DNA from: an uncultured Elusimicrobia bacterium
GTDB lineage: Bacteria > Elusimicrobiota > Elusimicrobia > 2-01-FULL-59-12
Direction of reading: 5' to 3'
Assembly: GCA_963702895.1 (NCBI GenBank)
Contig: OY969767.1
Location: 2,016,001 to 2,080,000, forward strand
DNA length: 64,000 nt
Part shown: positions 41,263 to 59,310 of the stretch, in pieces
Position numbering within the stretch: position 1 is the first letter of the stretch
How the letters are laid out: each line of letters opens with the position of its first letter
Program-made: the position numbers and the translations under genes
Notes under the pieces: model-generated
Seen by the model: the letters and a program-made list of their open reading frames with translations, nothing else
Database searches by the model: none
Told to the model about the DNA's origin: nothing

Positions 41263-41823
41263 TTACTGCGCCGTTCCGGTGAAACGTACTGTGATTTCCC
41301 GTGCGCTGTTGTCGGCGACACTCGTCGGCATATCCAGCCGGAACCACAGATCAACACTCGGCAATGAGCCGCCGGATGTTGTGACCACCGGACTACTTCC
41401 TCCCAACCCTCGCAGGGGGTTGGCTCCTGTTCCATCGAACAAGTGACTGGCCACGCTAAACGCACCACTGGCTGGACGAACGGCTGCCGTCGCCACGTAG
41501 AGCGCGTACGTATTCGCCGCATTGTTCGGTGAAGCGATCGTAGAGGCGAACCAGCCCGCAGGACTTGATTGCGTCTGGATTCGCTTATCGACCGTCACAT
41601 CCACTGAACCGTTATTCGACAAGCTCAGCGCAGAGGCCGTCACGGTTGTGACACCCACATCCAGCGACCCGAACGCATAAGTGGTCGGCGACAACGTCAG
41701 ATCCACCGTCGCGACAGGCGTGACTGTGATGGTGCCATCAACAGGGTTTGAGGCCCTTGCTTGACTGCTGGCCAGCGTTACGAAGACTCCGCATAGCGCA
41801 AGCCATTTGTGTGAATTACGCAT
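41263..41823 (-). CDS. Secreted pilin-like subunit 6 (diverged paralogue)
   Basis: Signal peptide, then SNPVDGTITVTPVATVDLTLSP...LWFRLDMP...REITVRFTGTAQ. Confidence 0.85.
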   Translation of the reverse strand: MRNSHKWLALCGVFVTLASSQARASNPVDGTITVTPVATVDLTLSPTTYAFGSLDVGVTTVTASALSLSNNGSVDVTVDKRIQTQSSPAGWFASTIASPNNAANTYALYVATAAVRPASGAFSVASHLFDGTGANPLRGLGGSSPVVTTSGGSLPSVDLWFRLDMPTSVADNSAREITVRFTGTAQ

Positions 41824-41891
41824 GCATACTCACCCCCCTATTCACATGGTTGTCCTCTCATCGAGGAGTCCTTTTCCATCTGGACTCCCTC

Positions 41892-42458
41892 TTACAGTGC
41901 CGATCCAGTGAAGCGCACCGTGATTTCACGTGCGGTCTGCGCGCTGACTGCGCTCGGCATCGCCAGCTTGAACCACAGGCTCACGTTCGGCGTCGCTCCG
42001 CCTGAAGTCGTGATGGTGGGATCTCCACCGCCCAAGCCCTTCAAGCCGTTGGCTCCGGTCCCGTTGAACAGGTGGTCCGCGTCAACGAAGTCCCCTGTCG
42101 CAGGGCGTGCCGCCGCTGTCGCCACGTAGAGCGCGTACTTGTTCAGCGCTACTGCCGGCGAGCCGATCGTCGCGGCCGTCCAGCCCGCGGGACTTGACTC
42201 GGTCTGGATGTTCTTCTGGACGGTCACGTCCACACTGCCCGAGTTCGACAGCGTGATGGCTGTCGCCGCCACAGACGACGTATTGACGGTGAGCGGCCCG
42301 TAGGCGTAGGTGGTCGGTGACAAGGTCAAGTCCACCGTCGCCACGGGTGTCACCGTGATCGTGCCGTCTACGGGGTTGGCGGCTTGCGCCGTCCCCAGTC
42401 CCAACAACCCAATGCCCAACATCCCAAGCACAACCTTCCATCTTGTTCTGGTGTTCAT
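41892..42458 (-). CDS. Secreted pilin-like subunit 5
   Basis: 188 aa, AQA signal cleavage site, AAGGAGG ribosome-binding site; 754-bp tandem unit. Confidence 0.88.
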   Translation of the reverse strand: MNTRTRWKVVLGMLGIGLLGLGTAQAANPVDGTITVTPVATVDLTLSPTTYAYGPLTVNTSSVAATAITLSNSGSVDVTVQKNIQTESSPAGWTAATIGSPAVALNKYALYVATAAARPATGDFVDADHLFNGTGANGLKGLGGGDPTITTSGGATPNVSLWFKLAMPSAVSAQTAREITVRFTGSAL

Positions 42459-42645: not shown

Positions 42646-43212
42646 TTACAGTGCCGATCCAGTGAAGCGCACCGTGATTTCACGTGCGGTCTGCGCGCTG
42701 ACTGCGCTCGGCATCGCCAGCTTGAACCACAGGCTCACGTTCGGCGTCGCTCCGCCTGAAGTCGTGATGGTGGGATCTCCACCGCCCAAGCCCTTCAAGC
42801 CGTTGGCTCCGGTCCCGTTGAACAGGTGGTCCGCGTCAACGAAGTCCCCTGTCGCAGGGCGTGCCGCCGCTGTCGCCACGTAGAGCGCGTACTTGTTCAG
42901 CGCTACTGCCGGCGAGCCGATCGTCGCGGCCGTCCAGCCCGCGGGACTTGACTCGGTCTGGATGTTCTTCTGGACGGTCACGTCCACACTGCCCGAGTTC
43001 GACAGCGTGATGGCTGTCGCCGCCACAGACGACGTATTGACGGTGAGCGGCCCGTAGGCGTAGGTGGTCGGTGACAAGGTCAAGTCCACCGTCGCCACGG
43101 GTGTCACCGTGATCGTGCCGTCTACGGGGTTGGCGGCTTGCGCCGTCCCCAGTCCCAACAACCCAATGCCCAACATCCCAAGCACAACCTTCCATCTTGT
43201 TCTGGTGTTCAT
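42646..43212 (-). CDS. Secreted pilin-like subunit 4 (protein identical to subunit 5)
   Basis: Same translation as 41892-42458. Confidence 0.88.
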   Translation of the reverse strand: MNTRTRWKVVLGMLGIGLLGLGTAQAANPVDGTITVTPVATVDLTLSPTTYAYGPLTVNTSSVAATAITLSNSGSVDVTVQKNIQTESSPAGWTAATIGSPAVALNKYALYVATAAARPATGDFVDADHLFNGTGANGLKGLGGGDPTITTSGGATPNVSLWFKLAMPSAVSAQTAREITVRFTGSAL

Positions 43213-43399: not shown

Positions 43400-43966
43400 T
43401 TACAGTGCCGATCCAGTGAAGCGCACCGTGATTTCACGTGCCGTCTGCGCGCTGACCGCGCTCGGCATGTTCAGCTTGAACCACAGGCTCACGTTCGGCG
43501 TCGCTCCGCCTGAAGTCGTGATGGTGGGATCTCCACCGCCCAAGCCCTTCAAGCCGTTGGCTCCGGTCCCGTTGAACAGGTGGTCCGCGTCAACGAAGTC
43601 CCCTGTCGCAGGGCGTGCCGCCGCTGTCGCCACGTAGAGCGCGTACTTGTTCAGCGCTACCGCCGGCGAGCCGATCGTCGCGGCTGTCCAGCCCGCGGGA
43701 CTTGACTCGGTCTGGATCCTCTTCGTGCAGGTCACGTCCACACTGCCCGAGTTCGACAGCGTGATGGCTGTCGCCGCCACAGACGACGTATTGACGGTGA
43801 GCGGCCCGTAGGCGTAGGTGGTCGGTGACAAGGTCAAGTCCACCGTCGCCACGGGTGTCACCGTGATCGTGCCGTCTACGGGGTTGGCCGCCTGCGCCGT
43901 CCCCAGTCCCAACAACCCAATGCCCAACATCCCAAGCACAACCTTCCATCTTGTTCTGGTGTTCAT
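43400..43966 (-). CDS. Secreted pilin-like subunit 3
   Basis: Variant carrying CTKR and LNMP. Confidence 0.88.
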   Translation of the reverse strand: MNTRTRWKVVLGMLGIGLLGLGTAQAANPVDGTITVTPVATVDLTLSPTTYAYGPLTVNTSSVAATAITLSNSGSVDVTCTKRIQTESSPAGWTAATIGSPAVALNKYALYVATAAARPATGDFVDADHLFNGTGANGLKGLGGGDPTITTSGGATPNVSLWFKLNMPSAVSAQTAREITVRFTGSAL

Positions 43967-44153: not shown

Positions 44154-44720
44154 TTACAGTGCCGATCCAGTGAAGCGCACCGTGATTTCGCGTGCCGTCT
44201 GCGCGCTGACCGCGCTCGGCATCGCCAGCTTGAACCACAGGCTCACGTTCGGCGTCGCTCCGCCTGAAGTCGTGATGGTGGGATCTCCACCGCCCAAGCC
44301 CTTCAAGCCGTTGGCTCCGGTCCCGTTGAACAGGTGGTCCGCGTCAACGAAGTCCCCTGTCGCAGGGCGTGCCGCCGCTGTCGCCACGTAGAGCGCGTAC
44401 TTGTTCAGCGCTACCGCCGGCGAGCCGATCGTCGCGGCTGTCCAGCCCGCGGGACTTGACTCGGTCTGGATCCTCTTCGTGCAGGTCACGTCCACACTGC
44501 CCGAGTTCGACAGCGTGATGGCTGTCGCCGCCACAGACGACGTATTGACGGTGAGCGGCCCGTAGGCGTAGGTGGTCGGTGACAAGGTCAAGTCCACCGT
44601 CGCCACGGGTGTCACCGTGATCGTGCCGTCTACGGGGTTGGCCGCCTGCGCCGTCCCCAGTCCCAACAACCCAATGCCCAACATCCCAAGCACAACCTTC
44701 CATCTTGTTCTGGTGTTCAT
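44154..44720 (-). CDS. Secreted pilin-like subunit 2
   Basis: Variant carrying CTKR and LAMP. Confidence 0.88.
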   Translation of the reverse strand: MNTRTRWKVVLGMLGIGLLGLGTAQAANPVDGTITVTPVATVDLTLSPTTYAYGPLTVNTSSVAATAITLSNSGSVDVTCTKRIQTESSPAGWTAATIGSPAVALNKYALYVATAAARPATGDFVDADHLFNGTGANGLKGLGGGDPTITTSGGATPNVSLWFKLAMPSAVSAQTAREITVRFTGSAL

Positions 44721-44852
44721 GTGTGTAGACCCTCCTTAAAGGTCGTTTGTCTGTTCGTCCGTGATGTCATCCCCGTCCAACCGGGGATCCATTCTTTCCA
44801 TTCGTTTTTCCTCTTGGATCCCGGCTTGCGATCCGCCGGGATGACAAAAGGG

Positions 44853-45416
44853 TTACAGTGCCGTTCCAGTGAAGCGCACCGTGATTTCGCGTGCCGTCTG
44901 CGCGCTGACTGCGCTCGGCATGTTCAGCTTGAACCACAGGCTCACGTTCGGCGTCGCTCCGCCTGAAGTCGTGATGGTGGGATCTCCACCGCCCAAGCCC
45001 TTCAAGCCGTTGGCTCCGGTCCCGTTGAACAGGTGGTCCGCGTCAACGAAGTCCCCTGTCGCAGGGCGTGCCGCCGCTGTCGCCACGTAGAGCGCGTACT
45101 TGTTCAGCGCTACCGCCGGCGAGCCGATCGTCGCGGCCGTCCAGCCCGCGGGACTTGACTCGGTCTGGATCCTCTTCGTGCAGGTCACGTCCACGGTCCC
45201 GGTATTGCTCAACGTGACCGCTGTTGCCGATACCGAAGACGCGCTCACGGCGAGCGGCCCAAAGGCGTAAGTGGTGGGTGCAAGCGTCAAGTCCACCGTC
45301 GCCACGGGTGTCACCGTGATCGTGCCGTCCACGGGGTTAGCGGCTTGCGCCGTCCCCAGTCCCAAAAACCCGAAGCCCAACACCCACGTCATGATTCTTT
45401 TCATGTTCGTATGCAT
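44853..45416 (-). CDS. Secreted pilin-like subunit 1
   Basis: Different signal peptide and N-terminal third; the remainder is nearly identical to subunit 3. Confidence 0.88.
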   Translation of the reverse strand: MHTNMKRIMTWVLGFGFLGLGTAQAANPVDGTITVTPVATVDLTLAPTTYAFGPLAVSASSVSATAVTLSNTGTVDVTCTKRIQTESSPAGWTAATIGSPAVALNKYALYVATAAARPATGDFVDADHLFNGTGANGLKGLGGGDPTITTSGGATPNVSLWFKLNMPSAVSAQTAREITVRFTGTAL

Positions 45417-45431: not shown

Positions 45432-46727
45432 TTACTTCGCCACGCTGATATAGACGCGGCTGTAGACTTCCACCGGAATATCCCGTCCCTGCAGGCCGCC
45501 CTGGATGACAAACATGAAGCGTTTCCCGCGTATGGCTGGGTCATCGGGAAGTTCCAGGGTGATGGAGGTGCTCTTGATACTGTCACCGGGGACTTTGAGG
45601 TCCGTGTGTTTGACTTTGATCCACTCCGGCTTTCCGTACTCGTACCCGGACGCCGCGGCCATTCCGCCTGGCGCTGGCACCGAGGCAACCTTGAAGTTCA
45701 AGGTTTGAGGGCTGCGATTGATGAGGCTGAGTCGAACCCCCATCTCGGAGAGGTCCACCTTCTTCCCTGGCACCATAAAGCCGGGGACATACTGAAGGTC
45801 CGGCTCAAGGGTAAAGTTGAGCATCTGGTAGATGCCCTGTTTCTGCAGGCGGCGAATTTCTTCGGGGCCCGCCGAGCCGACGCTAAAACGCAATCGGCTC
45901 GACAACGCAATCCCGAAGGACAACGCTGTGACCTGCCCAGGCGGTGGTTCCGGTGTGGTCGCTGTCAGATGGGCCTGGAAATGCCGTCCCACATACTCTT
46001 CACCCGGCGGGACTTGAAGAATGACATCCACGAGACCCTCTTCGCCGGCGGCCAGCTTGAGGCGGCCAGGGACCAATTTGATCCAGGACGGATCGACAAT
46101 CGCCTCATAACCAGGCTTGAGCTGCTCTTTGCTGGGGATTTCGACTTCCACCTGGAGTTCGACTTCGCCGTTGGAGCGGTTCTCCACACGGTAAGGCAGG
46201 TTCCGCATGGTCCGGAGGTTGTAGATTTTGCCCGGCTGGACATGCTCCATGATGACGTCGGCGAACTTGGTGCCCACGTTGTAGCCGGCTTCCGCTGGCG
46301 TCGCGGAAAAGCCCAACGCGCCTGCGAGCAGCACGGCGATGAGCCCTTTCCAGAAACGACCGGTGTCGGAAGGGTAATCACCGCCTCGTTCGGCAAGCGC
46401 AACGGCCTCGAGGGTCTTACGAATACCCCGGAAACGCGCCTGTCCATACCATGGCCGGAAGGGCGTGGTCTTGGGAGCTGGCGTGGAGGCCGCTTTGACC
46501 ACATCCAAGGCGTACATCTCTTCCGCTGGAGTGGCCAACTGGTAGCGGTGAGGCTTCTCTTCGATGAGAAGCCCACCGGAGGTGAGGTTTTCCAGGATCG
46601 CGACGCAAGAGTCGAAGGGGACCCCCTGTTCGCGGCTGATGTCATGAGCGGAGCGCCATGACGTGCTCTTGTCCTTGAAGGCGCGCAGGCACATCAAGGC
46701 ATACTGAATGCTTTGCTGATTATTCAC
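45432..46727 (-). CDS. Rrf2-like winged-HTH fused through a TM/signal segment to two Ig-like (chaperone-like) domains
   Basis: QYALMCL...AHDISREQGVP...ILENLTSGGLL...YQLATPAEE..ALDVV; hydrophobic LIAVLLAGALGF..AEA; SWIKLVPGRLKLAAGE...ILQVP and EWIKV...LKVPGD...LELP. Confidence 0.7.
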   Translation of the reverse strand: MNNQQSIQYALMCLRAFKDKSTSWRSAHDISREQGVPFDSCVAILENLTSGGLLIEEKPHRYQLATPAEEMYALDVVKAASTPAPKTTPFRPWYGQARFRGIRKTLEAVALAERGGDYPSDTGRFWKGLIAVLLAGALGFSATPAEAGYNVGTKFADVIMEHVQPGKIYNLRTMRNLPYRVENRSNGEVELQVEVEIPSKEQLKPGYEAIVDPSWIKLVPGRLKLAAGEEGLVDVILQVPPGEEYVGRHFQAHLTATTPEPPPGQVTALSFGIALSSRLRFSVGSAGPEEIRRLQKQGIYQMLNFTLEPDLQYVPGFMVPGKKVDLSEMGVRLSLINRSPQTLNFKVASVPAPGGMAAASGYEYGKPEWIKVKHTDLKVPGDSIKSTSITLELPDDPAIRGKRFMFVIQGGLQGRDIPVEVYSRVYISVAK

Positions 46728-46929: not shown

Positions 46930-47574
46930 TTAAGCGGCTCTCTTGGCTTTTGTCTTTCCGCCTAAAACCATCCGGACCTGAATCAAGGAACGACACAGTT
47001 CCTTGAGTGTGATGCCCTGATCTTGGGCCATTTTTTGAAGCGTCCGGTGCGCTTCATCTTCCGTGTAGCCTTGCTGATCCATCAAAATCCCTTTGGCTTT
47101 TTCGAGAAGTTTGCGTGTTTCCAAAGTTTCGGAAAGCGTCTTCATTTCTTCTTTGAGGGATTTGATCGTTAGGAAACGGTGCCAGGCGCCCTCGATCATC
47201 GGAACGACTTGGGAGGTTTCGATGGGCTTGGCCATATAGGCGCTAGCGCCCAAATCCAAGGCTTGACGGCCGATCTTCGCTGATCCGTCTGCCGTCAAGA
47301 TGACCACAGCGGTCGTTTGAAGGGGCACGATTTGCGCAAGCGCCTCGAGGCCACTCGACTGTGGCATGTGAACATCCATCACGATAACGTCTGGCTTTTT
47401 TTCTTTCACAAGCGCCACAGCTTCCAGGCCGTTGTTGGCGATCCCGAGGATTTGATATTGGGATTGGCAGACGAGTTGCAGAACATTCAGAATGTCCAGT
47501 TGATCATCAGCAAACGCTACAGTTTTAACTCGTTCCATCGGCTCAAGTCTATGGTGAATCCGTAGTGATTTCAA
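46930..47574 (-). CDS. REC-ANTAR response regulator (AmiR/NasT/EutV type; start may be 47538)
   Basis: ADD, MDVHMP, LTA and KP receiver residues; LETRKLLEKAKGILM...TEDEAHRTLQKMA ANTAR domain. Confidence 0.92.
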   Translation of the reverse strand: MKSLRIHHRLEPMERVKTVAFADDQLDILNVLQLVCQSQYQILGIANNGLEAVALVKEKKPDVIVMDVHMPQSSGLEALAQIVPLQTTAVVILTADGSAKIGRQALDLGASAYMAKPIETSQVVPMIEGAWHRFLTIKSLKEEMKTLSETLETRKLLEKAKGILMDQQGYTEDEAHRTLQKMAQDQGITLKELCRSLIQVRMVLGGKTKAKRAA

Positions 47575-47620: not shown

Positions 47621-48097
47621 CTATTTCTCTATGGTAAAGCGCAGTCTCGAAAGTAGTCCGGGACTCACGGACACAGCTGCATCGCTCATCGGTGCTCCTC
47701 GAGTCCAGATCATGATTTGGTAGGGTTGCTCATGACGTTTCACAGAACGTGGGACGATGAGGGTGATCTGGAAGATGCCTTCCCCCCGCGCCGGGAGAAT
47801 TAATTCGTCAGGATCCAGGCGTACCCAAGCCGTCTCAGAAATGGGGATCGCCCCATCCTTCAGCTGGGCCTGGGTTGGAACGAGAGCTTGGACTTTGACA
47901 CGGATGGGCGTGTTTCCTAAGTTTTTGAGCACCAAGCCTTTGCCGCTAGGCCCGCTCACGACATAAGGCTGCCCGCTTGGAACTCCCCGAACGAAGACAT
48001 CACTGAAAGACGTGGATAGACCTTCGGCACACTCACCAAGCGGAGAAAGCGCCCCTAGCATGACACCCAAGATCAAAAAGCAACGTATTCTTATCAT
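47621..48097 (-). CDS. Secreted single Ig-like (chaperone-like) protein
   Basis: ATG overlaps the adhesin stop (ATGA); signal peptide. FSDV..., WVRLDPDELILPARGE..ITLIVP and LSRLRFTI parallel the first Ig domain of 45432-46727. Confidence 0.75.
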   Translation of the reverse strand: MIRIRCFLILGVMLGALSPLGECAEGLSTSFSDVFVRGVPSGQPYVVSGPSGKGLVLKNLGNTPIRVKVQALVPTQAQLKDGAIPISETAWVRLDPDELILPARGEGIFQITLIVPRSVKRHEQPYQIMIWTRGAPMSDAAVSVSPGLLSRLRFTIEK

Positions 48098-51000
48098 GGC
48101 GCGGTCGCCGTCACCGTCAGAATCATTTGCTGCTGATTGGTCGTGCTCGTGGTCGGAGGCGTATCCAGGCGAAGCCAAAGATTGCGGCTAGCGCTCACAG
48201 GAACAGACACGCCTGTCTGGTTGGCTCCGTAAATGCCCGGCGTCGATGCGGTCGGAGTGCTGATGATGATGTCGGTCGAAGAAAAGATATCGCTCAGAGG
48301 CTGGACCGAATTGAACTTACCGAACATGGCAAAGGTGTTGCGCGACGTGGGGAGAGCAGTCCCTACCCCCCACACCGTTGTCGGGCCTGAGGTTGTAATC
48401 GAAAGGGAAAATGTCTCTGCGACATTGCCCGTATTGGTGACGGCGATGGCAGATCCTGAGACGACGGTGCTGGCGACAGGAACGGAACCAAAGTCATAAC
48501 TCGAGGGGGACAAGCTCAGCGACAGGATAACGAAGGTCCAATTGGTGTTATTTTCAGAATCGATGGAATCGGGCCCCGCGGCGATCACGACACCCGCGCT
48601 CGCGCTGGAATAAGCGACATCGACATACGATACCGTATTTGTGGACGTGTTGTTCAAATACCACATTTGGTCCGGAGGCGTCGGCCGGATCCACACGGTG
48701 TTGCCACTCGACCCCCTCAGGACGAGATTGGCAATCGTAAACGTGGAATGGGCGTTGAAGTAGACCGTCGTCGCGCTGGCCAGGCCGGCGCCATCGACGG
48801 TAAGTTTGGTGGCGGTGAAGCTCGAAGCAAACGTCACGCCGCCGCTGGAGGTGTTCGAATCAATTAAGACCCAGAAGGGCAGGCCGGCATTCGTGATGGT
48901 TTGGGCCGAGGAGCCCGTCAGGGCCACGGTGCTCCGGTTGACCGTAAAGGCCCCGCTGTTGAGCTGCATGTCGCCGCCCAAATCCACCCGGTAGGAATTG
49001 GCGTTGGTGTTCATGGTCCCACCGCTAATGATGAAATCACCGTCAATCGCGATATCGGAACCCAGCGTCCACACCATACTTCCCCCCAAGGTGAGGTTCC
49101 CCACAATGGGAGAGGTAAAGGTCGTGCAGGTCTTGGCGCCGCTGCCGCTAAAGGTCAGGTTGTAGTATTGGGCGTTCTTGCAGGTTTGCGCGCCCGCCAA
49201 GGCGTAGTTCACCGTGTTGGAACTCGACACAAAGTCGACGGTGGTGACGGCCATGGCGTTGGTCGTGGCGCCGCTGGCGTTTAGGACAGAATCCAACCCT
49301 TGCGTCCAAGACCCGCCGCCGGTCAAGGTGCTCGAGGCGTTGACCGTGCCGTTGTTCGTGACTGACCCTGTCACGGTGAAGACGCCCGGGGTGGTGAGCG
49401 TCCCGTTGTTGGTCAAGGTCATGCCGGCTGCTACGGTGAGCGTCGTGATGCTCATGGTACCGCTGAGCGCTTGATTGTTGGTGTTGAAGGTGGCCGTACC
49501 AGTGATGGCGATGCTTCCGGAAGTCCGGGTGAGGCCGCCTCGAAACACGATCCCGGTGCTGGCGCCGCTGAGCGTTCCGCCGCTCACCGTGACCAGTCCC
49601 GCGAAGAGTTTTGAGCCTGTGTCGCTGGTGAGCGATACCGTTCCCCCTGAGAGCGTCGAAGCCCCTGTCACCCAGAACTGAAACGCGCCGGTGGTGAGCG
49701 TGCCGCCGGAAGCAAGAATCCCGCCATTGACCGTTACGGATGAGCCCAGCGTCCAGGCGGCGGTCCCGCCCATTTCGATATTCCCTAAGATCGGAGACGT
49801 AAAGGTGGTGCAAGTCTTGACGCCGCTGCCTCCGAAGGCGAGGTTGTAGTACTGGATATTCCTGCAGGTCTGGATGCCGGCGAAATTGTAGCGGACGGTG
49901 TTGCCACTGGCATTCGCTGTCAGCGTCGTGATTCCGGGCGTGCCGGTGAAGTTGAGGTTGAGCGTGCCGCCGGCGGCGTTGGTGAACCCACCTGTTCCGT
50001 TGAGCGCGGTGTTGACCGTAATCGTGCCTTGGTTGGTGAGCGTGGTTCCCGTAATCGTCAAGGTGGCCAGGTTGAGACTGGCGGTGTTGGTGTAGGCGGT
50101 GGTGAACGTGGGGCTGCCAAAGTCTGTGGCGCCCGCTGTGCCGCTGATGGTGCCCCCACCCACCTTGGCAAAGGCCGGCAGGAACGTCGTGGCGGCAGCG
50201 CCGGAGGTCGTACCGTTCATCACCAGATTTCCGTTGATATTGACCGTTTCAGCCGCTGTCACATTGAAATCACCATCCACGGTGAGTGTGTCGTTAAAGG
50301 TCTTGGAGCCGGTCGTGCTGGGAATCTGAAGCGTCCCGCCAGCATCCACTTGAACATCCACAAATATGGAAGTGCCTGTATCCGTGTTGAGTATTCCACC
50401 GTTTCCGATCGTCACGGTCTTATTAAACGTCTTGTTGCCCGTCGCGTTGGTGAGCGTCAAGGTCCCGTAGACATCGACGCTGCCGTTGGCGGTAAAGTCG
50501 AATCCGGCCGTGGTCAGTGTGCTGCCGCTGCGAACCGTAAGACTGGAGATCGTCACAGCCGCCGTGGGGACAGGCATGAAGGTGGCCGTGGACACGATCA
50601 ACACGGAATCCTGGGACGTGGGATACCCCTCATCCCAGTTGGACCAGTTCCACCAGTTGGTGTCGACAGCTCCCCACCAGGTCCGGATTTGTCCGGTGAG
50701 AAAACTCCAAAAGAAATTGTTCCCTGAATTGACGCTCGTGCCGTCATTGGCCACGATCGCTCTTCCCGAACGAGCGTCGGAATCCCGCACGTCCACATAC
50801 ACCCCGGAACTCGTCCCCGTATTGTTCAAATACCAGTTGGTGTCATCGATCGTAGACCTCAGCCAGATCTTTTTGCCGCTGGCACCTACCAGAGACAGGG
50901 TCGTGATGGTAAAAGTTGAATTGGCATTGAAGTAGACCGTCGTTTCGTTCGCCAAGTCGGCGCGGTTGATCATGAGCTTGGTGGCGGTGAAGCTCGAAGC

Positions 51001-54000
51001 AAACGTCACACCGCCGCTGGAGGTGTTCGAATCAATCAAGACCCAGAAGGGCAGGCCGGCATTCGTGATGGTTTGGGCCGAGGAGCCCGTCAGGGCCACG
51101 GTGCTCCGGTTGACCGTAAAGGCCCCGCTGTTGAGCTGCATGTCGCCGCCCAAATCCACCCGGTAGGAATTGGCGTTGGTGTTCATGGTCCCGCCGCTAA
51201 TCACAAAATCCCCGGAAATCGCGATATCGGAACCCAGCGTCCACACCATACTTCCCCCCAGCGTGAGGTTCCCCACAATGGGAGAGGTAAAGGTCGTGCA
51301 GGTCTTGGCGCCGCTGCCGCTAAAGGTCAGGTTGTAATACTGGGCGTTCTTACAGGTCTGAGCGCCCGCCAAGGCGTAGTTCACGGTGTTGGAGCTCGAC
51401 ACAAAGTCGACGGTCGTGACGGCCATGGCGTTGGTCGTGGCGCCGCTGGCGTTTAGGACAGAATCCAACCCTTGCGTCCAAGACCCGACACCGGTCAAGG
51501 TGCTCGAGGCGTTGACCGTGCCGTTGTTGATGACGGCTCCGGTGACCGTGACCACGCCGCTTGCTGTGAGACTCCCGTTGTTCGTTAGGGTTTTTGTGCC
51601 AGCGATGTTGATCGTGGCCGCCGAGATAACGCCGGCACTGTCATTAACAAAATCCTCGTTGATGGTGAGGGTCCCACCGACCGAGAGCGTTGCGACGCTA
51701 TTGGTATAGGCGGTGGAAAAAGTCGCATTGGTGATCGCAACGCTTGTTGCAGTGCCTGAGAGACTTCCCCCGCCCCCCACTTTGTTGAACGTCCAAAGCC
51801 CGGTATTGGACGTGATGCTGCCAGTCCCGTCCACCTGCAGGTCGCCGCTCACGCTTGTGGGCTCGGCGGCCGTGAAATTCACAAGCCCTCCGTTATTGAC
51901 CGTGATCGTGCCAAAGACAACCGAACCCAGTGTCGTGGTGACCGAGAGCGTGCCACTCACATCGACCGCTCCGAAATTCACAGCGGCGTTGTTGCCCTTG
52001 GTCACGGTGGTCCCATTGCCAACAGTCAGGGTGCCGGAAATGGTGCTGGCGGCACTTAGCGACCAGGACGCGGTCCCGCTTAAGGTAATGTTTTGAACAT
52101 TGTTGGCGCCCCCCACGAGAGCACATGTCTTGGCCCCACTATTGCCCAGCTCGAGCGTGTCATAGTTGGTCAGCCTACAGGTTTGTACTCCGGCGAAATT
52201 GTAGCGGACGGTGTTGCCACTGGCATTCGCTGTCAGCGTCGTGATTCCGGGCGTGCCGGTGAAGTTGAGGTTGAGCGTGCCGCCGGCGGCGTTGGTGAAG
52301 CCGCCGGTCCCGCTGAGCGCGGTGTTCACCGTGACGGTCCCTTGGTTGGTGAGGGTCGTCCCCGTGATCGTCAAGGTCGCCAGGTTGAGACTGGCGGTGT
52401 TGGTGTAGGCGGTGGTGAACGTGGGGCTGCCAAAGTCTGTGGCGCCCGCTGTGCCGCTGATGGTGCCCCCACCCACCTTGGCAAAGGCCGGCAGGAACGT
52501 CGTGGCGGCAGCGCCGGAGGTCGTACCGTTCATCACCAGATTTCCGTTGATATTGACCGTTTCAGCCGCTGTCACATTGAAATCACCATCCACGGTGAGT
52601 GTGTCGTTAAAGGTCTTGGAGCCGGTCGTGCTGGGAATCTGAAGCGTCCCGCCAGCATCCACTTGAACATCCACAAATATGGAAGTGCCTGTATCCGTGT
52701 TGAGTATTCCACCGTTTCCGATCGTCACGGTCTTATTAAACGTCTTGTTGCCCGTCGCGTTGGTGAGCGTCAAGGTCCCGTAGACATCGACGCTGCCGTT
52801 GGCGGTAAAGTCGAATCCGGCCGTGGTCAGTGTGCTGCCGCTGCGAACCGTAAGACTGGAGATCGTCACAGCCGCCGTGGGGACAGGCATGAAGGTGGCC
52901 GTGGACACGATCAACACGGAATCCTGGGACGTGGGATACCCCTCATCCCAGTTGGACCAGTTCCACCAGTTGGTGTCGACAGCTCCCCACCAGGTCCGGA
53001 TTTGTCCGGTGAGAAAACTCCAAAAGAAATTGTTCCCTGAATTGACGCTCGTGCCGTCATTGGCCACGATCGCTCTTCCCGAACGAGCGTCGGAATCCCG
53101 CACGTCCACATACACCCCGGAACTCGTCCCCGTATTGTTCAAATACCAGTTGGTGTCATCGATCGTAGACCTCAGCCAGATCTTTTTGCCGCTGGCACCT
53201 ACCAGAGACAGGGTCGTGATGGTAAAAGTTGAATTCGCATTAAAGTAGACCGTCGTTTCGTTCGCCAAGTCGGCGCGGTTGATCATGAGTTTGGTGGCGG
53301 TGAAGCTCGAAGCAAACGTCACACCGCCGCTGGAGGTGTTCGAATCAATCAAGACCCAGAAGGGCAGGCCGGCATTCGTGATGGTTTGGGCCGAGGAGCC
53401 CGTCAGGGCCACGGTGCTCCGGTTGACCGTAAAGGCCCCGCTGTTGAGCTGCATGTCGCCGCCCAAATCCACCCGGTAGGAATTGGCGTTGGTGTTCATG
53501 GTCCCGCCGCTAATCACAAAATCCCCGGAAATCGCGATATCGGAACCCAGCGTCCACACCATACTTCCCCCCAAGGTGAGGTTCCCCACAATGGGAGAGG
53601 TAAAGGTCGTGCAGGTCTTGGCGCCGCTGCCGCTAAAGGTCAGGTTGTAGTATTGGGCGTTCTTGCAGGTTTGCGCGCCCGCCAAGGCGTAGTTCACCGT
53701 GTTGGAACTCGACACAAAGTCGACGGTGGTGACGGCCATGGCGTTGGTCGTGGCGCCGCTGGCGTTTAGGACAGAATCCAACCCTTGCGTCCAAGACCCG
53801 CCGCCGGTCAAGGTGCTCGAGGCGTTGACCGTGCCGTTGTTCGTGACTGACCCTGTCACGGTGAAGACGCCCGGGGTGGTGAGCGTCCCGTTGTTGGTCA
53901 AGGTCATGCCGGCTGCTACGGTGAGCGTCGTGATGCTCATGGTACCGCTGAGCGCTTGATTGTTGGTGTTGAAGGTGGCCGTACCAGTGATGGCGATGCT

Positions 54001-57000
54001 TCCGGAAGTCCGGGTGAGGCCGCCTCGAAACACGATCCCGGTGCTGGCGCCGCTGAGCGTTCCGCCGCTCACCGTGACCAGTCCCGCGAAGAGTTTTGAG
54101 CCTGTGTCGCTGGTGAGCGATACCGTTCCCCCTGAGAGCGTCGAAGCCCCTGTCACCCAGAACTGAAACGCGCCGGTGGTGAGCGTGCCGCCGGAAGCAA
54201 GAATCCCGCCATTGACCGTTACGGATGAGCCCAGCGTCCAGGCGGCGGTCCCGCCCATTTCGATATTCCCTAAGATCGGAGACGTAAAGGTGGTGCAAGT
54301 CTTGACGCCGCTGCCTCCGAAGGCGAGGTTGTAGTACTGGATATTCCTGCAGGTCTGGATGCCGGCGAAATTGTAGCGGACGGTGTTGCCACTGGCATTC
54401 GCTGTCAGCGTCGTGATTCCGGGCGTGCCGGTGAAGTTGAGGTTGAGCGTGCCGCCGGCGGCGTTGGTGAACCCACCTGTTCCGTTGAGCGCGGTGTTGA
54501 CCGTAATCGTGCCTTGGTTGGTGAGCGTGGTTCCCGTAATCGTCAAGGTGGCCAGGTTGAGACTGGCGGTGTTCGTGTAGGCGGTGGTGAACGTGGGGCT
54601 GCCAAAGTCTGTGGCGCCCGCTGTGCCGCTGATGGTGCCCCCACCCACCTTGGCAAAGGCCGGCAGGAACGTCGTGTCGGCAGCGCCGGAGGTCGTGCCG
54701 TTCATCACCAGATCAGCATTGATCGCGACCGTTTCAGCCGCCGTCACATTCAAGTCGCCATCCACGGTGAGTGTGCCGTTAAAGGTCTTGGAGCCGGTGG
54801 TGTTGGAGATTCGCAGCACTCCGCCGCTATTGACCGTAACCGCATCATTAAAAACAACGGTGCCGGTGTCGGTGTTGAGTATTCCACCGTTTCCGACCGT
54901 CACGGTCCCATTAAACGTTTTGTTGCCCGTCGCGTTGGTGAGGGTCAAGGTCCCCGAAAGAGACGTGGGACCGTAGACCGTGAAATTGTACCCTGCAGTG
55001 GTTAATGATCCCGTGATCGTAAGGCCGGCCATGGAGAGGTGGCTGGTCGGCACGGGCATCACCAAGGCCGTTGACACAATCAGCACGTAATCATCCGTAC
55101 TGGGAACACCCGATTCCCAGTTCGAAGGGTTCCACCAATTGGTATCGACCGTCCCCCACCAGGTTCGTGTTTGCCCCCCGCTACCGAAATACCAGTTATA
55201 GTTGTTCCCTGAATTCTGGCTGCCTCCGTCATTGGCTTGTATGATAGACCCGGCGCGGGCATCGGAGTCCCGCACGTCGACATACGTGATGGAATTCGTC
55301 CCCGTATTATTCAAATACCAGTTGGTGTCATCGACTGTAGACCGGAGCCATATCTTTTTGCCGCTGGCGCCTGCCAGAGACAGGGTCGTGATGGTAAAAG
55401 TTGAATTCGCATTAAAGTAGACCGTCGTTTCGTTCGCCAAGTCGGCGCGGTTGATCATGAGTTTGGTGGCGGTGAAGCTCGAAGCAAACGTCACACCGCC
55501 GCTGGAGGTGTTCGAATCAATCAAGACCCAGAAGGGCAGGCCGGCATTCGTGATGGTTTGGGCCGAGGAGCCCGTCAGGGCCACGGTACTCCGGTTGACC
55601 GTAAAGGCCCCGCTGTTGAGCTGCATGTCGCCGCCCAAATCCACCCGGTAGGAATTGGCGTTGGTGTTCATGGTCCCACCGCTAATGATGAAATCACCGT
55701 CAATCGCGATATCGGAACCCAGCGTCCACACCATACTTCCCCCCAGCGTGAGGTTCCCCACAATGGGAGAGGTAAAGGTGGTGCAGGTCTTAGTACCGCT
55801 GCCAGTCATACGGAGGTTGTAATATTGAGCGTTCTTGCACGTTTGGTTGCCGCCCAGGGCATAGTTCACCGTGTTGGAACTGGCGGAGAAATTGACGGTG
55901 GTCACCGCCATGGCGTTGGTCGTGGCGCCGCTGGCGTTCAGGACAGAATCCAACCCTTGCGTCCAAGACCCGCCGCCGGTCAAGGTGCTCGAGGCGTTGA
56001 CCGTGCCGTTGTTCGTCACAGACCCCGTCACCGTGAAGACGCCCGGGGTCGTGAGCGTCCCGTTGTTGGTGAGCGTGATGCCGGCTGCTACGGTGAGCGT
56101 CGTGATGCTCATGGTACCGCTGAGCGCTTGGTTGTTCGTGTTGAAGGTGGCCGTACCAGTGATGGCGACGCTTCCGGAAGTCCGGGTGAGGCCGCCGCGA
56201 AAGACGATCAGGGCGCTGGCGCCGCTCAGCGTCCCTCCACTCACTGTAACCAAGCCGACCATGACTTTCGACCCTGTGTCGCTGGTGAGCGATACCGTTC
56301 CCCCTGAGAGTGTCGAAGCCCCTGTCACCCAGAACTGAAACGCGCCGGTGGTGAGCGTGCCGCCGGAGGCAAGAATCCCGCCATTGACCGTCACCGAAGA
56401 AGCTAAGGTCCAGGCGGCGGTCCCTCCCATTTCGATATTCCCTAAGATCGGTGAGGTAAAGGTGGTGCAGGTCTTAGTACCGCTGCCAGTCATACGGAGG
56501 TTGTAATATTGAGCGTTCTTGCACGTTTGGTTGCCGCCCAGGGCATAGTTCACCGTGTTGGAACTGGCGGAGAAATTGACGGTGGTCACCGCCATGGCGT
56601 TGGTCGTGGCGCCGCTGGCGTTCAGGACAGAATCCAACCCTTGCGTCCAAGACCCGCCGCCGGTCAAGGTGCTCGAGGTGTTGACCGTGCCGTTGTTCGT
56701 CACAGACCCCGTCACCGTGAAGACGCCCGGGGTCGTGAGCGTCCCGTTGTTGGTGAGCGTGATGCCGGCTGCTACGGTGAGCGTCGTGATGCTCATGGTA
56801 CCGCTGAGCGCTTGGTTGTTCGTGTTGAAGGTCGCCGTGCCGGTGATCGACACGCTCCCCGAAGTCCGGGTGAGGCCGCCCCGAAAGACGATCGCTGTGC
56901 TGGCGCCGCTCAATGTGCCGCCGCTCACCGTGACCAGTCCCGCGAAGAGTTTTGAGCCTGTGTCGCTGGTGAGCGATACCGTTCCCCCTGAGAGCGTCGA

Positions 57001-59310
57001 AGCCCCTGTCACCCAGAACTGAAACGCGCCGGTGGTGAGCGTGCCGCCGGAGGCAAGAATCCCGCCATTGACCGTCACCGAAGAAGCTAAGGTCCAGGCG
57101 GCGGTCCCTCCCATTTCGATATTCCCTAAGATCGGTGAGGTAAAGGTGGTGCAGGTCTTAGTACCGCTGCCAGTCATACGGAGGTTGTAATATTGAGCGT
57201 TCTTGCACGTTTGGTTGCCGCCCAGGGCATAGTTCACCGTGTTGGAACTGGCGGAGAAATTGACGGTGGTCACCGCCATGGCGTTGGTCGTGGCGCCGCT
57301 GGCGTTCAGGACAGAATCCAACCCTTGCGTCCAAGACCCGCCGCCGGTCAAGGTGCTCGAGGCGTTGACCGTGCCGTTGTTCGTCACAGACCCCGTCACC
57401 GTGAAGACGCCCGGGGTCGTGAGCGTCCCGTTGTTGGTGAGCGTGATGCCGGCTGCTACGGTGAGCGTCGTGATGCTCATGGTACCGCTGAGCGCTTGGT
57501 TGTTCGTGTTGAAGGTGGCCGTACCAGTGATGGCGACGCTTCCGGAAGTCCGGGTGAGGCCGCCCCGAAAGACGATCGCTGTGCTGGCGCCGCTCAATGT
57601 GCCGCCGCTCACCGTGACCAGTCCCGCGAAGAGTTTTGAGCCTGTGTCGCTGGTGAGCGATACCGTTCCCCCTGAGAGCGTCGAAGCCCCTGTCACCCAG
57701 AACTGAAACGCGCCGGTGGTGAGCGTGCCGCCGGAGGCAAGAATCCCGCCATTGACCGTCACCGAAGAAGCTAAGGTCCAGGCGGCGGTCCCTCCCATTT
57801 CGATATTCCCTAAGATCGGTGAGGTAAAGGTGGTGCAGGTCTTAGTACCGCTGCCAGTCATACGGAGGTTGTAATATTGAGCGTTCTTGCACGTTTGGTT
57901 GCCGCCCAGGGCATAGTTCACCGTGTTGGAACTGGCGGAGAAATTGACGGTGGTCACCGCCATGGCGTTGGTCGTGGCGCCGCTGGCGTTCAGGACAGAA
58001 TCCAACCCTTGCGTCCAAGACCCGCCGCCGGTCAAGGTGCTCGAGGCGTTGACCGTGCCGTTGTTCGTCACAGACCCCGTCACCGTGAAGACGCCCGGGG
58101 TCGTGAGCGTCCCGTTGTTGGTGAGCGTGATGCCGGCTGCTACGGTGAGCGTCGTGATGCTCATGGTACCGCTGAGCGCTTGGTTGTTCGTGTTGAAGGT
58201 CGCCGTGCCGGTGATCGACACGCTCCCCGAAGTCCGGGTGAGGCCGCCCCGAAAGACGATCGCTGTGCTGGCGCCGCTCAGCGTCCCTCCACTCACTGTA
58301 ACCAAGCCGACCATGACTTTCGACCCTGTGTCGCTGGTGAGCGATACCGTTCCCCCTGAGAGCGTCGAAGCCCCTGTCACCCAGAACTGAAACGCGCCGG
58401 TGGTGAGCGTGCCGCCGGAGGCAAGAATCCCGCCATTGACCGTCACCGAAGAAGCTAAGGTCCAGGCGGCGGTCCCTCCCATTTCGATATTCCCTAAGAT
58501 CGGTGAGGTAAAGGTGGTGCAGGTCTTAGTACCGCTGCCAGTCATACGGAGGTTGTAATACTGAGCGTTCTTGCACGTTTGGTTGCCGCCCAGGGCATAG
58601 TTCACCGTGTTGGAACTGGCGGAGAAATTGACGGTGGTCACCGCCATGGCGTTGGTCGTGGCGCCGCTGGCGTTCAAAATGGAATTGGCTCCTTGGTTCC
58701 ACGTGCCAGCTCCCGTCAGTGTCCCCAGGGTTGACGCGGTGCCGTTATTGGTCATAGTGCCGGTCACGGTCATGGTGCCGGCCACCGAGATCGTCCCGTT
58801 ATTCGTCACCGTCCCAGCCGATATCGTAAGCGCTCCCGCAAAAGAGAGGTTCGCCGTGCCCTGAATGGTTTTGTTGTTGGTTAAGGTGGTCAGGCCGGTG
58901 AGGGTGTTGGATCCAGTTCCGTCAATCGTCGTCCCGGCGCCCGTGAGCGTGAGGGCACCGCCACCGCTGTTGGTGCCGTTGTTGGTGTAATTGCCGGTGC
59001 CTGTCAGAGTGAATGTGTTATTGATGGTGAGTATCCCCCCATTGTTAATGGTGATCGCTGTAACAGCTTGAGCGGGGGTGGCGGTCACCGTGACGGTATG
59101 GCCATTGGCAACGGTCATACTGTCGGCCGTTCCGGGAAAATCAACTCCTTGCGTGCAGGCCGCCGCGCAGGCGCCGCCCCACGTCGTGCCGATATTGAAA
59201 TTCCCGGACTGCGATGAAGTGAAAGCGGCTGCCTGGGCGGGAGTCTGCATGAGAAAAAATGCAGCCGCACTAGCACCGCAAAGGAGCGCTAATCTTTGAA
59301 TCCGTAACAT
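48094..59310 (-). CDS. Giant (3738-aa) repetitive secreted adhesin-like protein with C-terminal pilin-like domain
   Basis: AQA signal peptide; Thr/Gly/Asn/Ser-rich beta-helix-like sequence; 228-aa (684-bp) tandem repeats and larger duplications; the last ~145 aa align with the small subunits. Confidence 0.9.
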   Translation of the reverse strand: MLRIQRLALLCGASAAAFFLMQTPAQAAAFTSSQSGNFNIGTTWGGACAAACTQGVDFPGTADSMTVANGHTVTVTATPAQAVTAITINNGGILTINNTFTLTGTGNYTNNGTNSGGGALTLTGAGTTIDGTGSNTLTGLTTLTNNKTIQGTANLSFAGALTISAGTVTNNGTISVAGTMTVTGTMTNNGTASTLGTLTGAGTWNQGANSILNASGATTNAMAVTTVNFSASSNTVNYALGGNQTCKNAQYYNLRMTGSGTKTCTTFTSPILGNIEMGGTAAWTLASSVTVNGGILASGGTLTTGAFQFWVTGASTLSGGTVSLTSDTGSKVMVGLVTVSGGTLSGASTAIVFRGGLTRTSGSVSITGTATFNTNNQALSGTMSITTLTVAAGITLTNNGTLTTPGVFTVTGSVTNNGTVNASSTLTGGGSWTQGLDSVLNASGATTNAMAVTTVNFSASSNTVNYALGGNQTCKNAQYYNLRMTGSGTKTCTTFTSPILGNIEMGGTAAWTLASSVTVNGGILASGGTLTTGAFQFWVTGASTLSGGTVSLTSDTGSKLFAGLVTVSGGTLSGASTAIVFRGGLTRTSGSVAITGTATFNTNNQALSGTMSITTLTVAAGITLTNNGTLTTPGVFTVTGSVTNNGTVNASSTLTGGGSWTQGLDSVLNASGATTNAMAVTTVNFSASSNTVNYALGGNQTCKNAQYYNLRMTGSGTKTCTTFTSPILGNIEMGGTAAWTLASSVTVNGGILASGGTLTTGAFQFWVTGASTLSGGTVSLTSDTGSKLFAGLVTVSGGTLSGASTAIVFRGGLTRTSGSVSITGTATFNTNNQALSGTMSITTLTVAAGITLTNNGTLTTPGVFTVTGSVTNNGTVNTSSTLTGGGSWTQGLDSVLNASGATTNAMAVTTVNFSASSNTVNYALGGNQTCKNAQYYNLRMTGSGTKTCTTFTSPILGNIEMGGTAAWTLASSVTVNGGILASGGTLTTGAFQFWVTGASTLSGGTVSLTSDTGSKVMVGLVTVSGGTLSGASALIVFRGGLTRTSGSVAITGTATFNTNNQALSGTMSITTLTVAAGITLTNNGTLTTPGVFTVTGSVTNNGTVNASSTLTGGGSWTQGLDSVLNASGATTNAMAVTTVNFSASSNTVNYALGGNQTCKNAQYYNLRMTGSGTKTCTTFTSPIVGNLTLGGSMVWTLGSDIAIDGDFIISGGTMNTNANSYRVDLGGDMQLNSGAFTVNRSTVALTGSSAQTITNAGLPFWVLIDSNTSSGGVTFASSFTATKLMINRADLANETTVYFNANSTFTITTLSLAGASGKKIWLRSTVDDTNWYLNNTGTNSITYVDVRDSDARAGSIIQANDGGSQNSGNNYNWYFGSGGQTRTWWGTVDTNWWNPSNWESGVPSTDDYVLIVSTALVMPVPTSHLSMAGLTITGSLTTAGYNFTVYGPTSLSGTLTLTNATGNKTFNGTVTVGNGGILNTDTGTVVFNDAVTVNSGGVLRISNTTGSKTFNGTLTVDGDLNVTAAETVAINADLVMNGTTSGAADTTFLPAFAKVGGGTISGTAGATDFGSPTFTTAYTNTASLNLATLTITGTTLTNQGTITVNTALNGTGGFTNAAGGTLNLNFTGTPGITTLTANASGNTVRYNFAGIQTCRNIQYYNLAFGGSGVKTCTTFTSPILGNIEMGGTAAWTLGSSVTVNGGILASGGTLTTGAFQFWVTGASTLSGGTVSLTSDTGSKLFAGLVTVSGGTLSGASTGIVFRGGLTRTSGSIAITGTATFNTNNQALSGTMSITTLTVAAGMTLTNNGTLTTPGVFTVTGSVTNNGTVNASSTLTGGGSWTQGLDSVLNASGATTNAMAVTTVDFVSSSNTVNYALAGAQTCKNAQYYNLTFSGSGAKTCTTFTSPIVGNLTLGGSMVWTLGSDIAISGDFVISGGTMNTNANSYRVDLGGDMQLNSGAFTVNRSTVALTGSSAQTITNAGLPFWVLIDSNTSSGGVTFASSFTATKLMINRADLANETTVYFNANSTFTITTLSLVGASGKKIWLRSTIDDTNWYLNNTGTSSGVYVDVRDSDARSGRAIVANDGTSVNSGNNFFWSFLTGQIRTWWGAVDTNWWNWSNWDEGYPTSQDSVLIVSTATFMPVPTAAVTISSLTVRSGSTLTTAGFDFTANGSVDVYGTLTLTNATGNKTFNKTVTIGNGGILNTDTGTSIFVDVQVDAGGTLQIPSTTGSKTFNDTLTVDGDFNVTAAETVNINGNLVMNGTTSGAAATTFLPAFAKVGGGTISGTAGATDFGSPTFTTAYTNTASLNLATLTITGTTLTNQGTVTVNTALSGTGGFTNAAGGTLNLNFTGTPGITTLTANASGNTVRYNFAGVQTCRLTNYDTLELGNSGAKTCALVGGANNVQNITLSGTASWSLSAASTISGTLTVGNGTTVTKGNNAAVNFGAVDVSGTLSVTTTLGSVVFGTITVNNGGLVNFTAAEPTSVSGDLQVDGTGSITSNTGLWTFNKVGGGGSLSGTATSVAITNATFSTAYTNSVATLSVGGTLTINEDFVNDSAGVISAATINIAGTKTLTNNGSLTASGVVTVTGAVINNGTVNASSTLTGVGSWTQGLDSVLNASGATTNAMAVTTVDFVSSSNTVNYALAGAQTCKNAQYYNLTFSGSGAKTCTTFTSPIVGNLTLGGSMVWTLGSDIAISGDFVISGGTMNTNANSYRVDLGGDMQLNSGAFTVNRSTVALTGSSAQTITNAGLPFWVLIDSNTSSGGVTFASSFTATKLMINRADLANETTVYFNANSTFTITTLSLVGASGKKIWLRSTIDDTNWYLNNTGTSSGVYVDVRDSDARSGRAIVANDGTSVNSGNNFFWSFLTGQIRTWWGAVDTNWWNWSNWDEGYPTSQDSVLIVSTATFMPVPTAAVTISSLTVRSGSTLTTAGFDFTANGSVDVYGTLTLTNATGNKTFNKTVTIGNGGILNTDTGTSIFVDVQVDAGGTLQIPSTTGSKTFNDTLTVDGDFNVTAAETVNINGNLVMNGTTSGAAATTFLPAFAKVGGGTISGTAGATDFGSPTFTTAYTNTASLNLATLTITGTTLTNQGTITVNTALNGTGGFTNAAGGTLNLNFTGTPGITTLTANASGNTVRYNFAGIQTCRNIQYYNLAFGGSGVKTCTTFTSPILGNIEMGGTAAWTLGSSVTVNGGILASGGTLTTGAFQFWVTGASTLSGGTVSLTSDTGSKLFAGLVTVSGGTLSGASTGIVFRGGLTRTSGSIAITGTATFNTNNQALSGTMSITTLTVAAGMTLTNNGTLTTPGVFTVTGSVTNNGTVNASSTLTGGGSWTQGLDSVLNASGATTNAMAVTTVDFVSSSNTVNYALAGAQTCKNAQYYNLTFSGSGAKTCTTFTSPIVGNLTLGGSMVWTLGSDIAIDGDFIISGGTMNTNANSYRVDLGGDMQLNSGAFTVNRSTVALTGSSAQTITNAGLPFWVLIDSNTSSGGVTFASSFTATKLTVDGAGLASATTVYFNAHSTFTIANLVLRGSSGNTVWIRPTPPDQMWYLNNTSTNTVSYVDVAYSSASAGVVIAAGPDSIDSENNTNWTFVILSLSLSPSSYDFGSVPVASTVVSGSAIAVTNTGNVAETFSLSITTSGPTTVWGVGTALPTSRNTFAMFGKFNSVQPLSDIFSSTDIIISTPTASTPGIYGANQTGVSVPVSASRNLWLRLDTPPTTSTTNQQQMILTVTATAP

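Follow-up and report, generated by a model that had tools for sequence, protein, structure and literature searches.

The window analyzed here is a 64,000-nucleotide (nt) stretch of DNA from an uncultured Elusimicrobia bacterium (GenBank assembly GCA_963702895.1, contig OY969767.1, positions 2,016,001 to 2,080,000 of the forward strand), and positions are those of the window unless a contig is named. On its minus strand lie genes for a giant secreted repeat protein, six small secreted subunits homologous to the C-terminal end of the giant, two candidate chaperones, a response regulator, a candidate anchor protein, and an outer-membrane barrel. We describe this locus, its relatives in other Elusimicrobiota, and the evidence that it probably encodes a fiber built by donor-strand exchange. 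The features, from open reading frames (ORFs) and domain searches with hidden Markov models (HMMs), are as follows (aa, amino acids; Ig, immunoglobulin; T9SS, type IX secretion system).

48094..59310, minus strand: giant secreted repeat protein, 3,738 aa, from the ORF and its translation; proposed tip or cap
48097..48528, minus strand: subunit-like C-terminal domain of the giant, residues 3595-3738, placed by the domain HMM; predicted strand acceptor
47621..48097, minus strand: p185, secreted, one PapD-like domain, homologous to p431; candidate chaperone for the C-terminal domain of the giant
46930..47574, minus strand: response regulator with ANTAR RNA-binding output (Pfam Response_reg, E 6e-22; ANTAR, E 4.5e-20)
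45432..46727, minus strand: p431, with an Rrf2-like winged helix, a hydrophobic segment, and two PapD/ASH-like Ig domains; candidate subunit chaperone
44853..45416, minus strand: subunit S1, 187 aa, with signal peptide, N-terminal strand, and Ig-like domain; 86-88% identical to S2-S5
44154..44720, minus strand: subunit S2, 188 aa (ORF, domain HMM, identity comparison)
43400..43966, minus strand: subunit S3, 188 aa (ORF, domain HMM, identity comparison)
42646..43212, minus strand: subunit S4, 188 aa, protein identical to S5 (ORF, domain HMM, identity comparison)
41892..42458, minus strand: subunit S5, 188 aa, the copy modeled with AlphaFold2 (AF2) and in the complex; predicted donor strand at residues 27-40 (about 42339-42380)
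41263..41823, minus strand: subunit S6, 186 aa, a divergent paralogue (63-64% identity to the other five); the final subunit gene ahead of the anchor
39168..41111, minus strand: anchor candidate, 647 aa, with an FN3 region and a T9SS type A sorting domain (TIGR04183, FlgD_ig, N-terminal mimicry)
36859..39171, minus strand: PorV/PorQ-family outer-membrane barrel, 770 aa, with a long C-terminal extension (NF033709)

The interval 48094-48528 is the 3' end of the 3,738-aa minus-strand ORF. The encoded giant consists of a Sec-type signal peptide, a passenger of ~3,570 residues rich in T, G, S, and N, and the putative acceptor domain at the C terminus. A repeat search finds five passenger repeats of 684 nt followed by four of about 2.2 kb; Tandem Repeats Finder left the window blank because the periods of 684 and 754 nt exceed its limit. 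There is no PDB sequence match to the first 1,200 aa of the giant at an E of ≤0.01. In agreement with an earlier note on this DNA, no autotransporter barrel, LPxTG, or T9SS-tail signature was found in the protein, and the T9SS sorting-domain models (TIGR04183 and PF18962) have no match in its last 168 aa at an E of ≤0.1. The names "adhesin" and "surface display" for the giant are assumptions.

The six subunit ORFs (186 to 188 aa) stand in tandem; all have a strong Shine-Dalgarno sequence and encode a signal peptide, and S2-S5 share 98 to 100% mutual identity. The earlier note had aligned a string from the C terminus of the giant with one from the small proteins. Both strings are present, the second in the 188-aa ORFs at 41892-44720, and the observation is confirmed: the homology between the giant domain and the subunits is secure. 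The last 155 residues of the giant match S5 by BLASTP with an E of 1e-8 (34 of 146 positions identical; residues 13-154 of this segment against subunit residues 42-187). Profile alignment by hhalign of 50 proteins ending in a giant-type domain (alignment A2) with 48 subunit homologues (A1) is highly significant, with a probability of 99.35% and an E of 5.8e-21, and spans 141 columns (subunit residues 40-187). As had also been proposed, homology begins just after the N-terminal strand of the subunit, at subunit residue 42 (BLASTP) or 40 (hhalign), with the mature subunit N terminus (residues 27-43) lying outside the region homologous to the giant. In the genome (2,724,539 bp in a single contig, 98% complete), the domain-family HMM matches 7 of 22,192 six-frame ORFs, namely the six subunits and the end of the giant, the sole large protein among them. 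Beyond weak Ig-like rows, no Pfam or NCBIfam family was found for the subunits, the C-terminal domain of the giant, p185, or p431, and the subunit profile has no match among PDB sequences at an E of ≤1.

An exhaustive phmmer search of 1.84 billion representatives yielded 621 relatives of the giant domain at an E of ≤0.001, against only 4 longer domain-bearing proteins from a word-based search. Among the best 150 of the 621, 102 are longer proteins in which at most 12 residues separate the domain from the C terminus, 42 are short (many of them fragments), and 6 have other arrangements, including tandem arrays. An FN3 domain or the end of the passenger immediately precedes the C-terminal domain in the long forms, and the payloads of the large proteins comprise FN3 (20 of 50) as well as NHL, SBBP, CARDB, galactose-binding, and VCBS domains. 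The full-length short forms mostly have a strand-like segment of ~12 to 16 residues straight after the signal peptide, as judged by eye. Three of the 12 invariant columns of the family (T35, T37, and P38) fall in this N-terminal stretch of the subunit.

The same stretch is predicted to insert into the domain of the giant. In the AF2 monomer of S5, which has a predicted local distance difference test score (pLDDT) of 88.8, residues 27-43 have no assigned strand. When the last 155 aa of the giant (with A2) were combined with mature subunit residues 27-188 (with A1), the predicted complex scored 0.90, 0.91, and 0.91, the best of three controls reaching 0.00; the mark used for this score is attained by 116 of 157 solved complexes and by 2 of 215 mismatched pairs. 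Contact agreement between runs is at least 99% and partner pLDDT at least 92, and the C-terminal domain of the giant, for which the earlier note had implied the subunit fold, folds confidently in the complex (pLDDT 93), the N-terminal strand of the subunit lying between its first and last strands. Subunit residues 27-40 sit between residues 20-30 (parallel) and 134-152 (antiparallel) of the giant, counted within its last 155 aa, and the antiparallel contacts (giant-subunit) are 149-31, 146-34, and 143-37. This predicted interface geometry is that of donor-strand exchange, and the model supports binding. The prediction may echo pilin architecture in general; that it reproduces a solved homologue is less likely, given that the subunit profile has no sequence relative in the PDB.

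Two further genes encode PapD-like domains. The periplasmic part of p431, modeled by AF2 from 33 sequences, has two such PapD/ASH-like domains in tandem (pLDDT 80.7). The first of them closes with a near-invariant S-R-L-R-F strand, a candidate for the parallel strand that a chaperone would lend to a subunit. Foldseek matches this model to ASH/hydin-type domains (E 3e-11) and to the chaperones FimC, CsuC, Caf1M, and SafB (E 5e-8 to 4e-7). By VIA, its first domain matches the WxLIP structures 9i1y and 9i25 at Z scores of 12.0 (root mean square deviation 3.4, 124 residues) and 11.4, which are tied with those of ASH domains, and p431 matches YadV, CsuC, Caf1M, and FimC at Z scores of 10 to 11. PapD_N (PF00345) has no match in the 98%-complete genome. 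The second candidate, p185, is a 185-aa ORF with homology (E 8e-16) to the first of the two periplasmic domains of p431, and its probable ATG (48097-48095) overlaps the TGA of the giant (ccATGA); orthologues directly follow the large gene in the related loci L002 and G073. The Rrf2 match of p431 (Pfam E 2.8e-4) is below cutoff. Besides p431 of the window, 2 of the 35 proteins from the p431 search (P0241 and P0242) have the N-terminal Rrf2-type winged helix plus membrane segment, the other homologues being mostly ~300 to 330 aa and too short for a winged helix. p431 may act as a sensor of the ToxR type, linking transcription to the load of subunits in the periplasm.

The anchor candidate has a signal peptide, a donor-strand-like mature N terminus at residues 48-61 (40929-40970), and a T9SS type A sorting domain at residues 561-645 (39177-39431), with TIGR04183 at 27.1 bits against a cutoff of 23 and FlgD_ig at an E of 1.5e-8. 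The domain HMM finds no acceptor domain in it. With a donor-type strand and no acceptor, it appears as the mirror image of the giant. The 770-aa barrel matches NF033709 at an E of 1.7e-12 (47.6 bits, below the 90-bit cutoff), and its ATG overlaps the TGA of the anchor gene (cgATGAtg, 39168-39171). These ATGA-type overlaps, giant with p185 and anchor with barrel, point to translational coupling within just those pairs for which binding is proposed.

The mature N terminus of the window anchor is ASFVDASLSVRPFA, compared with ANPVDGTITVTPVA in the subunits, and a comparison across loci is more telling. The anchor 14-mer that best matches the subunit strand of the same locus immediately follows the signal peptide in 8 of 9 loci. 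The anchor of the closest relative, L001, scores 49, and its 16-mer scores 52 against the window strand (by hand), compared with a maximum of 40 among 2,621,169 nonsubunit windows of the genome. In the two loci whose strands are most divergent, G130 (ATKSIEIHVR versus ASKNIAIHVR) and G177 (GDSFSITFTPVA versus SDTFQITFTPTG), the cognate scores are 36 and 33, with other anchors reaching at most 16 and 21, respectively, and 0 of 1,500 background ORF N termini equal the cognate score; the background sample probably includes subunit ORFs, which accounts for its highest values. A regular expression for the strand was made after both sequences had been seen, so that its match to the anchor is circular and only the lack of other matches is informative. 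From these alignments, the anchor strand appears to change in step with the subunits of its own locus, a pattern much stronger across loci than in the window alone.

Close relatives of the subunit are found in metagenome-assembled genomes of Elusimicrobiota. Four near-relative loci, read as far as their contigs reach, share the gene order large protein with the domain, p185, ANTAR regulator, p431, subunits, anchor, and PorV-like barrel; in L002 the regulator orthologue is at the same position. A p431 homologue is present in all 10 related loci, and the PorV-like gene follows in 9 of them, the tenth (L004) being cut short. The third and last subunit ORF of L001, which likewise precedes the anchor gene, starts like S6. 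In six distant genomes, chosen solely for proximity of a large and a small form from the 13 described below, a p431 homologue and a PorV-like gene are present in all six and an anchor homologue in five. The earlier note had suggested looking for the same C terminus elsewhere in the phylum, and the giant-domain query does match 46 of 201 sampled genomes and 34 of 77 genera. Two large Elusimicrobiota families have no match (0 of 58 and 0 of 63 genomes).

Chaperone-usher pili, type V pili, and TasA-like fibers are known to be built by donor-strand exchange. The reading that we favor, and rate as somewhat better than even, is that the locus encodes a fiber of this kind, with the subunits as shaft, the giant as tip, and the FN3 protein as base. 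The six small proteins would each present an Ig-like domain with an open groove and fill the groove of a neighbor with their 14- to 16-residue N-terminal strand. The giant, with the same domain at its extreme C terminus, a passenger of ~3,570 residues, and no donor strand, can only accept a strand, which places it at one end of the chain. At the other end, the 647-aa FN3 protein would plug the remaining groove with its donor-type strand and fasten the fiber to the outer membrane by means of its T9SS-type C-terminal domain and the PorV-like barrel, whose gene is translationally coupled to its own. p431, encoded before the subunit genes, and p185, coupled to the giant, would cap grooves prior to assembly. 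Subunit polymerization, the chaperone role, anchoring, surface location, and adhesin function are what we infer from this arrangement. The interpretation in the earlier note of a tip without a donor strand is supported in silico, since it gains from the donor-only anchor, the PapD-like chaperone candidates, and the phylum-wide five-part operon. S6 may serve as an adaptor, comparable to ElrC of the Elr pilus.

As the anchor strand resembles the strand of the subunits, it could fit the groove of the giant too. The giant might then be joined one-to-one to the anchor, with the subunits forming a separate homopolymer (e.g., a matrix fiber) or occasional spacers, which we regard as improbable. After 11 partial-match rows were set aside, a long-frame match was counted in 40 genomes, a short-frame match in 20, and both in 14, so that 26 of the 40 large-form genomes show no small form, in keeping with a direct giant-anchor link; the giant-domain query is insensitive to small forms, however, and the assemblies are fragmented. 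Against such a link, the large and small forms lie ≤15 kb apart in 13 of the 14 genomes with both, the model seats the subunit strand in the giant's groove with high confidence, and the 4 to 6 near-identical subunit genes suggest a high copy number in the same structure.

The T9SS-type parts of the locus bear on a second alternative, in which the domain shared by the giant and the subunits acts, like a T9SS C-terminal domain, as a terminal signal for sorting or attachment that an export or attachment machine would recognize, and the small proteins are short cargoes or decoys bearing it, with no fiber. The domain does end very varied passengers (102 of the best 150 relatives; FN3, NHL, SBBP, VCBS, and CARDB), and, like T9SS cargo, the anchor has a passing type A sorting domain and is followed by a PorV-family barrel gene. 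Elsewhere in the genome there are at least 9 PorV-family genes above cutoff, about 23 matches to T9SS-type C-terminal tails, and a single SprA-like ORF of 1,813 aa, below cutoff; the catalytic region of the PorU sortase was not found. However, the domain of the giant is not matched by T9SS tail models, its only 7 genome copies are all in one locus, and a sorting signal leaves unexplained the conserved N-terminal strand of the small forms, the predicted insertion of that strand, and the covarying copy in the anchor. We consider this explanation unlikely, and prefer the donor-strand-exchange fiber. At five places in the genome, a T9SS-tail match stands directly upstream of a PorV-family match by eye (e.g., C1:725390-726318, 276178-277508, 26929-28675, and 2327314-2328470), and "tail plus own barrel" suggests itself as a general anchoring pair in this organism.

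Several results weigh against a fiber. The complex prediction covers the giant-subunit pair alone, and all of the support is computational. The domain also occurs in tandem arrays in P0099 and P0137, so that the fold can exist inside one chain. In the window itself, the 16-mer of the anchor has an ungapped BLOSUM62 score of only ~30 (hand-summed), a modest value that 18 of 2,621,169 background windows reach or exceed; nine unrelated ORFs beat its best window, and with an HMM of the subunit strand alone the anchor is not among the top 16 genome matches. Among the related loci, the anchor of G073 fails the strand test with a score of 7, and that of G170 is weak, its score being reached by 37 of 1,500 background ORFs. 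The usher family PF00577 has no match at an E of ≤0.01 in the 2.72-Mb genome (an Escherichia coli control was positive), no other obvious pore for folded subunits was found there, and barrels of the PorV type, with 14 strands, are not known to export fibers. No convincing Pfam family was found in the giant, nor a recognized adhesin domain in its passenger. Finally, Foldseek with the subunit model gives no match at an E of ≤0.001, and VIA-align gives Z scores of at most 8.0, with ASH domains at the top and a tie of complete ASH/MSP Ig domains (~90 to 98 residues aligned) with fiber subunits (110 to 143) and with the pilin domains of FimH, FocH, and PapG.

The fold searches hold other information as well. 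The top Foldseek rows are nearly all subunits of strand-exchange fibers (TasA, cannulae, Hyper2, CS20, archaeal bundling pili, FimG, and Csu), the best being the TasA fiber 8aur at an E of 1.3e-3. In the VIA comparison, TasA, CanA, and ABP have Z scores of 6.6 to 7.5 with the longest aligned lengths (131 to 143 residues), and the pilin domains of FimH, FocH, and PapG are among the matches at 6.8 to 7.2. The ESM Atlas neighbors of the family are Elusimicrobiota clusters, with WxL and SCPU at 0.76 to 0.84 as leads only; of the named clusters, WxL is the nearest (0.84 and 0.76). By these scores the modeled subunit fold is best called an Ig-like sandwich, a pilin not being separable from a generic ASH/MSP Ig domain. 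Plain paralogy of a common Ig-like module of the ASH or choice-of-anchor D type, with no assembly role, would account for the ASH domains that head the VIA list (Z 8.0) and for the weak matches to a HYDIN-like Ig model (E 0.018 to 0.022) and to choice-of-anchor D (E 4.9e-4, below cutoff). Conservation of the five-gene neighborhood across families of the phylum, confinement of the domain to one locus of the genome, and a complex prediction that passed its controls make paralogy without an assembly role very improbable.

The closest parallel to the proposed fiber is the pilus of the Enterococcus faecalis elr operon, which, according to a preprint of 17 October 2026 (10.64898/2026.10.17.759780), is assembled by chaperone-guided donor-strand exchange. 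There, ElrA is the tip, with a payload that varies and, at the C terminus, a WxL domain that lacks a donor strand; ElrB is the base, with a donor strand and an LPxTG anchor but no acceptor domain; ElrE is a membrane-tied chaperone with a PapD-like fold; and the donor strand is antiparallel to the acceptor's final strand (10.64898/2026.10.17.759780). The same four roles (tip, pilin, base, and chaperone) recur in the present locus, where they are assigned from sequence and models; the antiparallel donor strand is as in the giant-subunit model, and the donor-only base is matched by the anchor candidate, with strand mimicry in 8 of 9 loci. The differences are as clear. In the preprint's screen of 4,698 genera in 81 phyla, the WxL system was seen in Bacillota only (10.64898/2026.10.17.759780), whereas the present locus belongs to double-membraned Elusimicrobiota, and anchoring by LPxTG and sortase contrasts with a T9SS-type tail and PorV-like barrel. 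The chaperone candidate here has two PapD-like domains, and the tip passenger is ~3,570 aa long. WxL (PF13731) matches 0 of 48 subunit homologues at an E of ≤1 and 0 of 50 C-terminal-domain proteins at an E of ≤0.1, and DUF916 (PF06030) matches 0 of 33 p431 homologues at an E of ≤1.

The earlier note had likened the giant to a FimH/PapG-style tip. The logic holds: FimH and PapG, like the giant, combine a passenger with a C-terminal pilin domain that has no N-terminal extension, the N-terminal donor strands of chaperone-usher pili are antiparallel to the last strand, as predicted for this locus, and these pili have a periplasmic PapD-fold partner, as p431 may be. Family membership does not hold; the usher, PapD_N, and fimbrial Pfam families have no match in this genome or locus, the SCPU family matches 1 of 48 subunit homologues at an E of 0.19, and the structural scores of the subunit against chaperone-usher pilins allow a claim of common arrangement only. 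TasA, archaeal bundling pili, and cannulae form strand-exchange fibers without a chaperone (PMC9245690). Their secreted subunits are processed by signal peptidase I and place an N-terminal strand in the following subunit (PMC9245690), as proposed for those here. A giant-passenger tip and an outer-membrane anchor of the present kind are not known from these systems, and Peptidase_M73/TasA (PF12389) matches 1 of 48 subunit homologues at an E of only 0.11.

Tentatively, and with less assurance than for the fiber as such, we put forward the locus as a possible first double-membraned counterpart of the Gram-positive chaperone-guided strand-exchange pilus. It would be usher-less and widespread in Elusimicrobiota (46 of 201 genomes), with modular tips of up to several thousand residues on a short shaft, and with a base held by a T9SS-type domain bound to a dedicated PorV-like barrel. 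In the literature we found no such system described for Elusimicrobiota and no link of PorV to donor strands. If the proposal is true, type IX-like sorting parts are tied to pilus anchoring for the first time, and a role emerges for some of the PorV-like barrels and T9SS-type tails that are numerous outside Bacteroidota. Strand-exchange fiber building would be far more widespread than current family models detect, and the attachment of giant surface proteins lacking an autotransporter barrel, LPxTG, or T9SS tail would be explained. The family itself, from a double-membraned phylum that branches deeply, is not covered by a Pfam or NCBIfam model, and the parts of the locus are small and soluble enough for direct biochemistry.

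Some further features of the operon, the window, and the genome were noted. The three 187-nt spacers between the S2-S5 genes, within 41824-44852, are identical or differ by a few bases, and GC inverted repeats are abundant in them; the operon with these spacers also holds the response regulator with the ANTAR (RNA-binding antiterminator) output. Rfam has no family in window positions 33000-60000, and a promoter and terminator scan gave nothing exceeding shuffled sequences. Among sequencing runs, none of RNA was listed as containing this DNA, and one DNA run contains a tenth of its sequence words. Window positions 19265-23521 hold three consecutive DUF1016/YhcG (PDDEXK nuclease) genes, one full-length (379 aa) and two (269 and 274 aa) that stop early in the nuclease domain, and at 7320-10511 there is a 1,063-aa ORF with no Pfam match at an E of ≤0.01. 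Elsewhere in the genome, about a dozen large ORFs (655 to 1,653 aa) at C1:2185315-2224423 each have a terminal T9SS-type domain, and C1:31594-72714, on the minus strand, is one open frame of about 13,700 aa.

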